The position numbers were made by a program, and so were the translations under genes. Source: an uncultured Intrasporangiaceae bacterium (lineage in GTDB: Bacteria > Actinomycetota > Actinomycetes > Actinomycetales > Dermatophilaceae). Taken from it: a stretch of 64,000 bases of DNA. Under the pieces are notes generated by a model. The model was given only the letters and a program-made list of their open reading frames with translations. It did not search any database and had not been told where the DNA came from. This document shows, piece after piece, positions 20,000 to 22,668 of this stretch. How positions within the stretch are numbered: position 1 is the first letter of the stretch; every line of letters starts with the position of its first letter. The DNA is taken from the NCBI GenBank assembly GCA_964647395.1, contig CAZYHR010000002.1, positions 5,601 through 69,600 on the forward strand, in the 5' to 3' direction.

Positions 20000-20293
20000 T
20001 CAGCGGCGTAGGGCCTGCTCCCAGGTGTGGATCCAGGCCAGCGCGAGGTGGCGCTGCAACTCCAGGCCCTTGGTCGTCAGCTCGTAGTGCTGCTCGACGA
20101 TGGCGGCCGGGTCACCCAAGCCGGCCCGGACCACGAGCGGCAGGTGGGCATAGCCCTCGGACCCGCGCCACTGCGCGAGCTGCCGCTGCCAGCCGAACAT
20201 GGCGTCGACGGACGCGATGCCGCCGGCCCGAGCGGCGGACATCGCGGCCTCCTCGAGGGAGGCCGCGATGTCCGACGGCGAGGGAACCCGCAC
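20000..20293 (-). CDS. Small phasin-like paralogue D (unknown function)
   Basis: It shares the GDPxxIVE-x2-YE...L-helix block with ORFs 21538-21867 and 22378-22668. GTG 20293 lies one base after the stop of the upstream gene. Confidence 0.5.
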   Translation of the reverse strand: MRVPSPSDIAASLEEAAMSAARAGGIASVDAMFGWQRQLAQWRGSEGYAHLPLVVRAGLGDPAAIVEQHYELTTKGLELQRHLALAWIHTWEQALRR

Positions 20294-20294
20294 C

Positions 20295-21461
20295 TCAGCT
20301 GGTGGCGTCCGGCTTGGACTGGGTGGCGGCCTCGGCGGCCTTGGCCGCGGCGGTCACGGCGGAGGCCGCGGACGTGGCGGTCTTGGCGGTGGCCCGACGG
20401 GTGGCGGCGGCGACCTGGTCGGCAGCCTTCTTCGCCGGGGTCGCCCGCTTGGTGGTCGAGCGCGGGGCGGCGGCCTTCTTGGTCGTCGTCTTCTTCGCTG
20501 CGGTCTTCTTGGCTGCCGTCTTCTTCGCCGCAGTCTGCTTGACGCTCGCCTTACGGGCCGGCGCGGCGGCGCGGGCGGCCTGCTCGACGGTGCTCTGGAC
20601 GGCTCCGGCCAACTGCTCGGCCCCGGCCTTGGCGGCGTCGGCCGCGGCGTCGGCGGCGGCAGCGGTGCTGACGGCTGCCGACCGGGCGCCCTCACGGGCC
20701 CGCTGGGCGGCCTCCTCCAGCGCCTCGCCCTGCTTGGTCACGAACTCCTTGGCCGCGGCTCGCTGCGCCTTGGCGGCCTCCTGGGCCTGCGCGGCGGCGT
20801 CCCGGGCCAGCTTCGCGGCGCTGGCCTCCGCGTCCTGCTCGGCGGTCTCGACCTGCTCGGCCGTCTTGCGCGCGCTCCGGGCCGCCTTGGTCGTCGCCTT
20901 GGCGAAGCGCTCCGCCTGCTCGGCCGCCGCCTCGGCCGCCTCGGACATGCTCGGCAGCCCCGGCACCTGCGGCAGGCCCGGCATCTGCGGCATCTGCATC
21001 TGCGGCATCTGGGGCATCTGCAGTTGCGGGAAGGCCACGCCGGCGCTCTTCATGAACTGCTCGGCGCTCTCGCGCGCCTTGGCCGCGGCCTCGGCGGCGG
21101 CCTTGACCATCGGCATCGCCGCAGCGGCTCCGACGGCCGGCACCGGCTTGCCGCCCGGCTTGCGACCGGTGCGCTGCGGGCGCACGCTGGCCGCGCTCAT
21201 GACCTCGCGCACCTGGTGGGCGAAGGACCGCTCGAGGTCGAGCAGCTGGCGGGCGAACGCGAACGCCTGCTCATAGCTGTCGCTCAGGTCGACCGGCGTG
21301 CCGAAGGCGTTGCGCAGCTCGGTCATGCCCGGCGTCTGCGGCAGCAGCTTGGCGGTGCTCTCGTAGTAGTTGCGGGCTGCGGAGAGGGCCGCGTCCTGAG
21401 CGGTGCGGACGCTCTCGAGCGCCTGCTCCTGCAGAGTCCGCAACATGTCCTGGGTGCTCAT
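20295..21461 (-). CDS. Phasin-like protein C with Ala/Gln-rich coiled region and Lys/Ala/Thr-rich C-terminal tail (PhaF/PhaM-like architecture)
   Basis: The N-terminus MSTQDMLRTLQEQALESVRTAQ is paralogous to the neighbours. It has a central MPQ repeat and a C-terminal AAKKTAAKKTAAKKTTTKKAAAP...TPAKKAA tail. Confidence 0.55.
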   Translation of the reverse strand: MSTQDMLRTLQEQALESVRTAQDAALSAARNYYESTAKLLPQTPGMTELRNAFGTPVDLSDSYEQAFAFARQLLDLERSFAHQVREVMSAASVRPQRTGRKPGGKPVPAVGAAAAMPMVKAAAEAAAKARESAEQFMKSAGVAFPQLQMPQMPQMQMPQMPGLPQVPGLPSMSEAAEAAAEQAERFAKATTKAARSARKTAEQVETAEQDAEASAAKLARDAAAQAQEAAKAQRAAAKEFVTKQGEALEEAAQRAREGARSAAVSTAAAADAAADAAKAGAEQLAGAVQSTVEQAARAAAPARKASVKQTAAKKTAAKKTAAKKTTTKKAAAPRSTTKRATPAKKAADQVAAATRRATAKTATSAASAVTAAAKAAEAATQSKPDATS

Positions 21462-21537
21462 CTGTCAAAAGTCCTCACGTGTCGATGTCGGTCTCGTGCG
21501 TGGGCTGGCCGGCCTCACGGTGGGGTCAGGGTCGGGG

Positions 21538-21867
21538 TCAGGATGCCCTGGGCTCAACACCGTAGCGGGGCAGATGGGGGGTCTGGGGGGCCAGCGCCGA
21601 GCTGGCGAAGATCTCGGCCACCCACTCCTTCTGCAACTGCATGACCTTGACGAGGAACTCGAAGTAGGACTCCACGATCGCCTCGGGGTCGCCGATCATG
21701 TCCTGCATGAACGTCGGCATCTCGTGATAGAGATTGAACTCCGGCATGAGGTGCGATGTCGCCTTGAGCCAGGCGTGGTAAGCCTCGATGCTGCCCTGCT
21801 GGAAGTCGGTCAGGGTGGCGAGCATCTGGTCCTGCATGGTGCGCAGGACGTCCTCCATGGTGATCAT
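21538..21867 (-). CDS. Small phasin-like paralogue B (unknown function)
   Basis: It contains MITMEDVLRTMQDQMLATL...MIGDPEAIVESYFEFLVKVMQLQKEW. SD AAGGAG lies upstream of ATG 21867. Confidence 0.5.
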   Translation of the reverse strand: MITMEDVLRTMQDQMLATLTDFQQGSIEAYHAWLKATSHLMPEFNLYHEMPTFMQDMIGDPEAIVESYFEFLVKVMQLQKEWVAEIFASSALAPQTPHLPRYGVEPRAS

Positions 21868-21875
21868 GTGGCTCC

Positions 21876-22277
21876 TTAGTGTGACTGCAGGTAGCTGCGG
21901 TAGACGGCGATGAGCGCTTCTTTTTCGGCGGCGGTGAGGACCGGGTCGGCCCGGACCGCCGCCTCCACCCCGATCGCTGCGGGGGCGGCCGAGTCGGCGT
22001 CCTGGCCCTCGGTCCCCCCGGTGCTGAGCATGTCCTCGACCGACACGTGCAACGCCTGGCCGATCTGCGACAGCACGCGCACCGTCGGGTCGTGCAGACC
22101 CCGCTCGATCTGGCTGAGGTAGGCGTTGGACACCTGGGTCGCTTGCGCCAACTGGCGCAGCGACATGTTCGCCAGCTCACGCTGCGAGCGGATGAACGCT
22201 CCCATGGCGGTGCGCTGGTAGGCCCACGCGTCGGCGTCGTGCCCGGCGGCGGCCTGGGGCTGCGGGTCGGTCGTCAT
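21876..22277 (-). CDS. XRE family helix-turn-helix transcriptional regulator
   Basis: The HTH reads FIRSQRELANMSLRQLAQATQVSNAYLSQIERGLHDPTVRVLSQIGQAL. ATG 22277 was chosen; the ORF-track 5' extension is Ser/Arg junk. Confidence 0.85.
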   Translation of the reverse strand: MTTDPQPQAAAGHDADAWAYQRTAMGAFIRSQRELANMSLRQLAQATQVSNAYLSQIERGLHDPTVRVLSQIGQALHVSVEDMLSTGGTEGQDADSAAPAAIGVEAAVRADPVLTAAEKEALIAVYRSYLQSH

Positions 22278-22377
22278 CGGCGTCGTCTCGTCCGGGTCGG
22301 GATGGCCGGGGGCGTTGACCCGCCGGCCGGGAAAGGCATGGAGGGGGTCGCCTCGGCGGCGACCCCCTCCTTGATGA

Positions 22378-22668
22378 TCACTTGCCCTGCGTGGGCTGCT
22401 GCGCCTCGAGCAGGTCCTGGACGAACTTCTTGTTGAGCTCGAGCAGCTTGCCGGCGAAGTCGTAGACCGAGTCGATGATCTCGGCCGGGTCACCGAGGGC
22501 CTTCTGCACCTCGGCCGGCATGGCCGGGGTGGCGGGCGCGTTCGGGGCGAACTTGGCGACCGACTCGCTCCACTGCTTCACGGCCTCGATGGTCGCCGCC
22601 TGGCCGCTCTTGATGGCCTCCAGCGCCTGCTCCTGCATGGCGGTCATCGCGTCCTGAGGGTTCTGCAT
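22378..22668 (-). CDS. Small phasin-like paralogue A (unknown function)
   Basis: It contains MQNPQDAMTAMQEQALEAIKSGQ...ALGDPAEIIDSVYDFAGKLLELNKKF. SD AAGGAG lies upstream of ATG 22668. Confidence 0.5.
   Translation of the reverse strand: MQNPQDAMTAMQEQALEAIKSGQAATIEAVKQWSESVAKFAPNAPATPAMPAEVQKALGDPAEIIDSVYDFAGKLLELNKKFVQDLLEAQQPTQGK

Follow-up and report, generated by a model that had tools for sequence, protein, structure and literature searches.

A candidate storage-inclusion coat family with its own XRE regulator beside the PHA synthase gene of an uncultured Intrasporangiaceae bacterium

A stretch of 64,000 nucleotides from an uncultured Intrasporangiaceae bacterium (contig CAZYHR010000002.1, positions 5,601 to 69,600; hereafter the window) carries a minus-strand cluster of five genes downstream of those for a polyhydroxyalkanoate (PHA) synthase, PhaC, and a wax ester synthase/diacylglycerol acyltransferase (WS/DGAT), and raises the question of what this cluster serves. 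Four of its genes, A, B, C and D, encode related helical proteins, and the fifth, between A and B, encodes a regulator of the XRE type (Table 1). A preliminary description had proposed phasin-like surface proteins of storage inclusions with a regulator of their own. We find that A-D share one domain of about 95 residues, a helical hairpin which we name FAM, and that the branch of this family coupled to an XRE gene is tied to phaC. By analogy with known granule and droplet systems, we consider it somewhat probable that A, B and D form a phasin-like coat, that C is a granule-nucleoid tether and that the XRE protein is an autoregulator resembling PhaR or MLDSR.

The first question was whether the four proteins are indeed paralogues. 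All four open reading frames (ORFs) were recovered from the ORF list of the window where the preliminary description had placed them, and the third-position G+C content (GC3) of the five genes, 0.91-0.95, is that of genuine genes in a genome of about 72% G+C (for A, the value of 0.91 was measured on a longer ORF, 22378-22770, which encloses the gene). Pairwise BLASTP from A returned B (29% identity, E = 9e-16), C (34%, 2e-15) and D (29%, 1.6e-13), and from B returned C (3e-9) and D (3e-8), while C and D gave no direct match to each other. Moreover, a profile built from A orthologues only, with no B, C or D input, recovered B (8.5e-18), C (7e-18) and D (1.2e-9), and no further ORF of the window among the 3,362 searched. 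These data confirm the paralogy and the common central block that had been noticed earlier. The best-conserved part of the domain is the G(D/T)P-x2-(I/L)-x-(E/D) block with the helix after it; the conserved core reads GDPxx(I/V)(V/I)(D/E)Sx(Y/F)(D/E)FAxxLLxL(N/Q)(K/R)xF, plus an N-terminal QxQxLExxKxGQ helix. D had been described as lacking the N-terminal motif, which holds for the degenerate copy in the window and not for its orthologues elsewhere, which retain it (…LREQTLDALKAG…) and so support the upstream start of D. The AlphaFold2 model of A, computed from an 88-sequence alignment, is a helical hairpin (mean predicted local distance difference test score, pLDDT, 89.8) with helices at residues 4-40, 52-58 and 61-90, in keeping with the helical character first ascribed to these proteins.

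We then asked how far the family extends and whether it has a name. A word-indexed search found 21 close homologues of A, one of them labelled 'Dermatophilaceae bacterium', and an exhaustive profile search found 652 cluster representatives (clusters at 50% identity) at E<=1e-3, 87 of them at E<=1e-10. Median length is 106 residues among the 150 best representatives, and the members with an identifiable source are Actinomycetota. Source names of the relatives, including ten diverse cluster representatives, read 'hypothetical protein' or were missing. Against Pfam, NCBIfam, PADLOC and PHROGs, A, C and D gave no significant match and B only sub-threshold ones; Pfam found no domain above threshold in the 88 FAM members scanned, a search of PDB sequences with the FAM profile gave chance matches only (E>=0.02), and the literature searched held no description of the family. 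The proteins had been called members of an unassigned family, and this stands, as none of the profile searches in Pfam, NCBIfam and the PDB placed them confidently in an unrelated one.

Does FAM nonetheless belong to a known family of inclusion proteins? The hidden Markov model (HMM) of Phasin_2 (PF09361 / TIGR01841; curated cut-off 24.9 bits) scored A at 12.5 bits (E = 0.18), under that cut-off, and gave nothing for B, C or D; among the 88 relatives only three reached E values of 0.004-0.01, and no NCBIfam phasin model matched A-D. When the 88-sequence FAM alignment was compared by hhalign with eight annotated phaP genes, all of them proteobacterial (plasmid records, seven beta- and one gammaproteobacterial), the probability of homology was 0.4%; two of the eight were rechecked and matched Phasin_2 at E values of about 1e-22 to 1e-24. 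The models PF05597 (Phasin/PhaF-PhaI), PF09602 (PhaP_Bmeg) and PF09650 (PHA_gran_rgn) had no match at E<=0.01 in the 88 members, nor at E<=1 for A-D, and apolipoprotein models none among the 88. Comparison of the FAM profile with the HbhA of Mycobacterium haemophilum, as a single-sequence template, gave a probability of 1.3% (the HbhA query retrieved HbhA-named proteins at 82-90% identity), and a Foldseek search of the A model against the PDB returned 0 matches. FAM was consequently rejected both as a Phasin_2 and as an HbhA homologue, and it lies outside the described phasin and HbhA families compared. The preliminary description had suggested comparisons with Phasin_2, PhaF, HbhA and apolipoprotein-like folds; none revealed homology, and its term 'phasin-like', if taken to mean descent, has to be given up.

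The genomic context of FAM was followed in two sets of loci. The first was seeded with A orthologues from species-representative genomes and spans Dermatophilaceae, Intrasporangium, Nostocoides, Janibacter, Kocuria, Microlunatus, Nocardioidaceae, Kineosporiaceae, Mycobacterium sp. and Solirubrobacterales; among its 21 loci of at least 5 kb, phaC is present in 11 and WS/DGAT in 10. The second, independent set came from metagenome contigs scanned with a different FAM clade, loci of at least 5 kb being counted. Here phaC lies beside the FAM-XRE pair in 6/7 loci, in the arrangement phaC-FAM-XRE or phaC<->XRE-FAM, as opposed to 0/30 FAM loci without XRE (Fisher p = 3e-6), and WS/DGAT is found in 0/7 of the XRE-linked loci. 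These results show that the XRE-coupled branch of FAM is tied to the PHA synthase. The WS/DGAT link is lineage-specific, and phaC is the steadier neighbour. Proximity to storage genes, on which the preliminary description had leaned, is thus upheld for XRE-linked FAM and phaC, holds for WS/DGAT in certain lineages only, and does not extend to the wider family, which mostly has neither XRE nor phaC nearby.

The arrangement around the cluster is itself conserved. Pfam identified genes for an alpha/beta hydrolase, PhaC, WS/DGAT and an Aldedh+MaoC protein directly upstream of A on the same strand, phaC being 3.7 kb upstream of the FAM cluster; convergent to them, on the plus strand, are genes for an acyl-CoA synthetase, a hydrolase, two enoyl-CoA hydratases and a 3-hydroxyacyl-CoA dehydrogenase. 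The upstream gene order recurs in L001-L003, L011, L013-L017 and L019, and, minus the Aldedh+MaoC gene, in L010 and L020. Two of these loci, both complete, belong to cultured strains, L014 to Kocuria dechangensis CGMCC 1.12187 and L017 to Janibacter sp. GXQ6167. Island and convergent block show conserved synteny across Dermatophilaceae, Janibacter, Kocuria, Microlunatus and further metagenome-assembled genomes (MAGs). As first described, the proteins have an XRE regulator of their own and lie near phaC and WS/DGAT, here within a conserved island.

One explanation of these patterns would do without inclusions. FAM proteins could be general stress or nucleoid-associated proteins, helical and of a DNA-protecting or desiccation type, with phaC close by incidentally or through co-regulation in stationary phase. 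All 30 longer metagenome loci without XRE contain a solitary FAM gene and neither phaC nor WS/DGAT nearby, about half of the FAM-XRE genome loci have no phaC within 8 kb, basic tails resembling histone H1 recur in the family, and solitary FAM genes, too, have the strong promoter. This explanation is, however, difficult to reconcile with the 6/7 versus 0/30 distribution of phaC and with an island that is syntenic as a whole across families; moreover, three of the four paralogues are tail-less and acidic or near-neutral, a poor fit to a DNA-binding protein. We regard it as unlikely.

The regulator itself is well defined. Its match to HTH_3 (E = 5.8e-13) establishes the XRE gene between A and B, as first described, and more than 2,240 homologues were found at E<=1e-10. 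Beyond the helix-turn-helix (HTH) core, the protein carries a conserved C-terminal two-helix module, …DPxLTxxEKxALIxVYRSYL, within which D..LT..EK..L..VY.SY does not vary across 24 homologues. AlphaFold2 predicts the HTH core, a disordered linker and C-terminal helices at 102-110 and 116-132, with block-mean pLDDT of about 83-95. A PhaR-type domain (PHB_acc_N) was not found among the Pfam and NCBIfam models, which matched only as HTH_3, HTH_31 and related XRE models. Throughout the genome loci the XRE gene adjoins an A orthologue, in either gene order. The one exception is L030, a fragment that carries the same genes as L016 and comes from a MAG whose A-XRE pair lies on another contig, L015. 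A parallel comes from the hbhA locus of M. haemophilum (L032), ordered DUF445 - XRE - hbhA - DUF2516, whose XRE protein is 42% identical to that of the window over 106 residues (E = 6e-25), the C-terminal …T..EK..L…Y.S(Y/F) included.

How is A expressed? Alignment of orthologous upstream regions, the sole means by which the promoter of A was found, revealed GTGA-TTGACA(22796-22791)-19 nt-TATGGT(22771-22766)-GAACT in the window; a generic promoter and terminator scanner made no relevant call and had missed the promoter because of the 19-nt spacer. The exact sequence TTGACATACTGATCA occurs once only in the 64-kb window. The element TTGACATAsTGAwC…TATAsT precedes the A orthologue in 27/27 non-redundant loci, and the consensus of these 27 regions, tG.TTGACATA.TGA.Cac…aTATAgT.a.Ca, contains a near-consensus -35/-10 pair. 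A weight-matrix scan of 457 kb located the element essentially once per locus, before A, with extra copies before a second FAM gene (L010) and before a C-type gene (L014). The -35 box lies within a partial dyad, GTGAT-N10-ATCAC, whose positions pair across sites (G4/C19 in 100%, T6/A17 in 92%) and which may act as an operator; by analogy, we propose that the XRE protein autoregulates the A promoter through it.

In soil relatives, the -10 box is embedded in a perfect 20-bp palindrome, GTGCTAA(G/C)TATA(G/C)TTAGCAC, located before FAM genes with or without XRE; within 460 kb, nearly all its matches are at FAM genes, which suggests a trans-acting regulator and a wider regulon. Its half-site resembles the TGCTANC of the box bound by MLDSR. 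Solitary FAM genes without XRE (soil metagenome loci L042-L120, e.g. L119, L110 and L061) are among those preceded by the palindrome. We also noted GTGCTAAC and the palindrome GCTTGCAAAAGCAAGC in the leader of the hbhA-linked XRE gene of M. haemophilum, the Rv0474 orthologue (L032, 3160-3200); the GTGCTAA half-site in this leader is that of the soil FAM palindrome and agrees with TGCTANC in the published MLDSR box.

A second signal follows the gene. Seven nucleotides past the stop codon of A begins a hairpin with a perfect 13-bp GC-rich stem, GGAGGGGGTCGCC-GCCGA-GGCGACCCCCTCC (dG -36.3 kcal/mol, z = -5.45, none of 200 shuffles as stable). Hairpins with dG <= -30 occur 3' of the A orthologue in 22/27 loci, their stem sequences unrelated, and only 11% of 113-nt segments drawn at random from the window are as stable. 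An Rfam scan of the locus gave no match above chance. We propose that the hairpin is a terminator, an attenuator or a 3'-end stabiliser, so that A exceeds the products of the later genes. Read together, the conserved signals point to strong, operator-controlled transcription of A and partial termination before XRE-B-C-D. The cluster had been described as a five-gene operon with tight junctions, which is true of XRE-B (8 nt) and C-D (1 nt) and less so of B-C (76 nt) and A-XRE (100 nt); with the hairpin inside the latter gap, the operon label requires an internal attenuator. Good Shine-Dalgarno sequences had likewise been assigned to A, B and XRE; AAGGAG is present for A and B, and the XRE gene has no convincing one. 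Metatranscriptome data, available as assembled contigs of related organisms, included a 1,062-nt contig of a relative (run X14) that spans homologues of A, XRE and B at a depth of 27.8, phaC-like contigs of that run having a depth of about 3; this contig hints at read-through from A into XRE-B.

These expression signals bear on a further explanation, namely that the A-type protein works with the XRE protein in regulation, whether as anti-repressor, co-repressor or signal adaptor, in place of forming a coat, and that B, C and D are targets or modulators of a two-protein switch. A and the regulator are both small and helical, and their genes are neighbours in every genome locus (the L030 fragment aside), even where no storage gene is close by. 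A switch would not, however, account for the hairpin that separates A from XRE or for the placing of the strongest expression signals on A, both of which fit an abundant structural product, nor for the three to five paralogues per locus with modular tails, and most FAM members have no XRE neighbour at all. We consider such a partnership quite unlikely.

The four FAM proteins differ in several respects. A and B are acidic (isoelectric point, pI, 4.5-4.6) and D is near neutral; their helices are moderately amphipathic (hydrophobic moment, muH, 0.4-0.66 in A), and none of the three has a PAKKA-type tail. The AAGGAG of A is 6 nt 5' of its ATG. Just 5' of this Shine-Dalgarno sequence, in the ~90-nt leader of A, is a second small hairpin, CTCCGGG-GTGTCCA-CCCGGAG (22688-22708, minus strand), with a similar one in L001 (GCTCCGG…CCGGAGC); such a 5' stem-loop may serve to stabilise the mRNA. 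B is richer in aromatic residues and methionine, its AAGGAG overlaps the XRE stop codon within the 8-nt gap, and B-type orthologues (…MQDQMLT…YHEMPTFMQDMLGDPE…) hold the equivalent position in L001, L013, L019, L020, L011 and L014. D starts with a GTG 1 nt past the stop codon of C, which suggests that C and D may be translationally coupled; its orthologues, of 102-113 residues, are the final gene of the cluster in L001, L013, L016 and L019.

C, by contrast with the tail-less proteins, is modular: an N-terminal FAM domain (21177-21461), a linker of Met/Pro/Gln repeats, a helical middle part with 39% Ala (residues 166-300) and a basic tail, with segment pI values of 5.0, 10.6, 5.2 and 11.6 in that order. 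The tail (residues 301-388) counts 21 K+R versus 3 D+E and contains AAKKT/PAKKA repeats, AAKKTAAKKTAAKKTTTKKAAAP…TPAKKA; it is a putative non-specific DNA-binding module of the PAKKA type, by analogy. The same architecture is shared by C-type orthologues in L001, L004, L008, L013, L016, L019 and L021, and the tails of C-type paralogues elsewhere have PAKK, PAKR or AKKT repeats. PAKK/AKKT tails are also present on FAM proteins of L007, L024 and L027, some A-type proteins ending in …APAAKPAAKKA (L024, L027), and lysine tails were found on 15/150 of the best FAM representatives. The Met/Pro linker between the FAM and Ala-rich regions reads QMPQMPQMQMPQMPGLPQVPGLP (window 20960-21050, minus strand), with counterparts PSMPSMPSMPTMPSMP in L001 and MPGLPAMPGMPAMPGMPAMPGLP in L011 and short Met/Pro linkers in the C-type proteins of L014 and L019. 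Metatranscriptome contigs pile up at window positions 20202-20568 to a depth of 154-284; as this region encodes the low-complexity AAKK tail, the pile-up is probably cross-mapping from unrelated Lys/Ala-rich genes rather than expression of C.

Four known systems help to interpret the cluster. PhaP and PhaR form a pair in which a repressor is titrated by the granule surface (reviewed in PMC5658603), and the window resembles their arrangement in Cupriavidus necator and Paracoccus denitrificans, with what would be a small helical coat gene near phaC and a dedicated DNA-binding repressor; as opposed to that pair, FAM is not Phasin_2, and the regulator is XRE HTH_3 and not PhaR (PHB_acc). PhaF of Pseudomonas putida and PhaM of C. 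necator combine a granule-binding helical N-terminal part with an AAKP/PAKKA lysine-rich, nucleoid-binding C-terminal part and distribute granules. C is likewise composite, its FAM domain being followed by an Ala-rich helical part and a K-rich tail; it differs from PhaF in lacking N-terminal homology (0 PF05597 matches in the 88 members) and from both PhaF and PhaM, as described, in its Met/Pro repeat linker.

The sole characterised actinobacterial PHA phasin is GA14 of Rhodococcus ruber (Q53051), a 14-kDa protein encoded next to phaC and reported to lack conserved phasin domains (PMC5658603, PMC4117528). FAM resembles GA14 by description, being small, beside phaC and free of known phasin domains, and GA14, which is reported to bind via two hydrophobic C-terminal patches and is compared here by description only, could be a FAM member. 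The annotators of R. jostii RHA1 had remarked on small ORFs adjoining phaC without a match to any known phasin (PMC2667194).

The fourth system is that of lipid droplets. HbhA, TadA and MLDS constitute one homologous family of lipid-inclusion proteins (PMC4850399, PMC6176652, PMC10699116). MLDS and its XRE-type regulator, MLDSR, are encoded in one operon of R. jostii RHA1, where MLDSR is located on droplets, binds the promoter/operator and autoregulates; its alpha5-alpha6 helices mediate oligomerisation and droplet targeting, and DNA binding has been demonstrated for the PAKKA tail of MLDS (PMC5504291). The window shares with these loci (RHA1 ro02104/ro02105, TadA of R. opacus, HbhA/Rv0474 of mycobacteria) the joining of an XRE gene with one for a helical, PAKKA-tailed protein. 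Its regulator is of the Rv0474/MLDSR type, by the identity with the hbhA-linked XRE protein already given for the former and by synteny only for MLDSR of RHA1, of which, from the synteny shared with hbhA/mlds, it is probably an orthologue. The modelled order of HTH core and C-terminal helix pair would also fit the reported helix map of MLDSR. Several features set the window apart: the FAM N-terminal domain has no detectable homology to HbhA, four paralogues are present of which three are tail-less, the putative coat gene and not the regulator comes first, the published MLDSR box is absent from the promoter, and the neighbour is phaC in place of a context of triacylglycerol (TAG) synthesis only.

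The parallel invites the explanation that these proteins coat the TAG or wax-ester droplets of the adjacent WS/DGAT and not PHA, as a replacement of TadA/MLDS outside Mycobacteriales. A WS/DGAT with an intact HHxxxDG motif is encoded two genes upstream and recurs in 10/21 genome loci, the regulator is of the type linked to hbhA and MLDS, the tail of C is MLDS-like, and FAM-XRE pairs are carried by MAGs of Mycobacterium sp. (L022, L025, L031). Yet the enzyme is missing from all seven XRE-linked metagenome loci, six of which have phaC directly adjacent, and L027 has the order FAM-XRE-phaJ-phaC without WS/DGAT; droplets as the exclusive target are, in our judgement, very unlikely. Finally, the locus might be a module of the toxin-antitoxin, defence or mobile-element kind, in which the XRE protein would be the antitoxin or controller and the small proteins the effectors. 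XRE genes paired with small ORFs are typical of such modules, and the regulator drew generic HTH matches in PADLOC and PHROGs. We nevertheless hold this to be highly improbable, since no defence or phage family was matched by A, C or D, and B had only a chance-level PADLOC match (MTase_I, E = 0.0016), tblastn of A found no match in 72,556 plasmids, the locus keeps stable chromosomal synteny with metabolic genes across families and the base composition of its flanks (about 72% G+C in the window), and a terminator-like hairpin separates A from XRE.

We return to the reading that this locus supplies the surface proteins of an intracellular storage inclusion, a set made from the unannotated FAM family. 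The inclusion would most likely be the PHA granule of the adjacent PhaC, and possibly also the neutral-lipid droplets of the adjacent WS/DGAT. A would be transcribed from its near-consensus sigma-A-type promoter, most transcripts ending at, or being stabilised by, the hairpin right after A, and would supply the abundant phasin-like coat, an acidic helical hairpin of about 10 kDa. Read-through would yield less XRE protein, the accessory coat paralogues B and D, and C, which may tie the inclusion to the nucleoid via its lysine tail, as do MLDS, PhaF and PhaM. The XRE protein would bind the dyad overlapping the A promoter, and free inclusion surface would titrate it away, as for PhaR and MLDSR, such that coat synthesis tracks surface area. 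From the genes and their neighbours we infer that the proteins localise to the inclusion, that C binds DNA, that the XRE protein binds the operator and is titrated, and that the hairpin affects stoichiometry.

Several observations weigh against this reading. As no homology of FAM to known phasins or HbhA was detected, its function is assigned from genomic context and by analogy. In 10/21 genome FAM-XRE loci, phaC is absent within 8 kb (for instance L007-L009, which contain XRE-FAM-FAM(tail) alone, and L006/L012/L023), and genes of the wider family are mostly solitary, with MFS transporter, aldehyde dehydrogenase or TenA-like genes as neighbours, so that the FAM domain is not restricted to inclusion loci. 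The hairpin after A has no U-tract and is therefore not a canonical intrinsic terminator. The soil-type palindrome is absent from the window, and the published MLDSR box, GNT(T/A)GCTNNTGCTANC, had no match in the locus even with two mismatches allowed. The polyphosphate-accumulating Dermatophilaceae examined in situ showed no detectable PHA (PMC9123174). In two Intrasporangium MAGs (L024, L027), the order hydrolase - FAM (…AAKPAAKKA tail) - XRE is found by rpsF-ssb-rpsR-rplI; L027 alone has a MaoC/PhaJ-like gene and phaC between XRE and rpsF, and L024 keeps the pair without them.

A broader proposal, which we put forward as possible and tentative, is that FAM and the XRE protein together are the missing coat and surface-sensing system of most Actinomycetota outside Mycobacteriales. 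One Rv0474/MLDSR-like XRE subfamily would govern HbhA, TadA or MLDS in Mycobacteriales and FAM in the other lineages, acting on a conserved operator that lies within the promoter, and PAKK-tailed paralogues would couple granules to the chromosome; the regulon would extend to the solitary FAM genes that have the palindromic promoter, as its distant members, and the FAM family may also include GA14. On the main reading, the coat domain would be new, being non-homologous to the phasins and HbhA compared, and the logic of the system would be that of the known granule and droplet systems, a second, independent case of a surface-titrated regulator combined with a DNA-tethered coat, as in MLDS/MLDSR and PhaP/PhaR/PhaF/PhaM.

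Such a system would matter for annotation and for the ecology of the host. With about 650 representatives, a diagnostic promoter and a partner regulator, FAM would aid the annotation of storage granules across Actinomycetota. The window stems from an organism of wastewater or activated sludge that is probably one of the Dermatophilaceae, a group central to biological phosphorus removal. The anaerobic storage compound of the group is disputed, and its capacity for PHA has been judged from phaABC alone (PMC9123174, PMC12978653). That phaC is accompanied by a dedicated set of putative coat and regulator genes speaks for a synthase in actual use. For expression in high-GC actinobacteria, this compact, strong promoter and the candidate operator within it could also prove useful.

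Table 1 Features of the FAM-XRE locus and neighbouring genes (window coordinates)
Feature	Position	Strand	Description or basis
Gene A	22378-22668	-	96 aa, FAM, pI 4.5
XRE regulator	21876-22277	-	133 aa, HTH_3; ATG start at 22277
Gene B	21538-21867	-	109 aa, FAM paralogue
Gene C	20295-21461	-	388 aa, modular FAM paralogue
Gene D	20000-20293	-	97 aa, FAM paralogue, GTG start
Promoter and candidate operator of A	22761-22800	-	aligned upstream regions of orthologues
Hairpin after A	22340-22370	-	folding, shuffles, orthologous loci
Lys/Arg-rich tail of C	20298-20561	-	aa 301-388 of C
Aldedh+MaoC (PaaZ-like/PhaJ-like)	22823-24871	-	Pfam
WS/DGAT	25018-26397	-	Pfam; HHAMCDG (HHxxxDG) intact
PHA synthase PhaC	26406-28226	-	Pfam; lipase box GDCSGG intact
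Alpha/beta hydrolase	28226-29077	-	Pfam
paaA	32000-33001	+	phenylacetate catabolic cluster
paaB	32998-33297	+	phenylacetate catabolic cluster
paaC	33294-34067	+	phenylacetate catabolic cluster
PaaE-like reductase	34470-35708	+	phenylacetate catabolic cluster
Thiolase	35830-37068	+	phenylacetate catabolic cluster
PaaK-like ligase	37135-38445	+	phenylacetate catabolic cluster

A phenylacetate catabolic cluster is thus also present in the window. In L006, L012 and L023, which have no phaC, the FAM-XRE pair is found directly between PaaZ and paa genes (paaABCDE), suggesting that the phaC/WS-DGAT block may be an insertion into an older paa neighbourhood. The idea that PaaZ, A and XRE form a phenylacetate unit was dropped, as some A-XRE pairs have no PaaZ and some adjoin phaC directly.

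Copy number and arrangement of the module vary. L013, L016 and L019 (Dermatophilaceae/Actinomycetales MAGs) contain five FAM paralogues, A, B, an extra copy, C and D, the extra copy being of about 100-120 residues and ending in …PKKTK or …PKKSK; compared with the four of the window, FAM copy number thus varies within the same island. A Solirubrobacterales MAG (L026, 2760-8776) has two phaC genes that flank a FAM-like ORF of 76 residues and a weaker XRE-like gene, followed divergently by a regular A-type FAM-XRE pair, the former being a more diverged second copy of the module in one locus.

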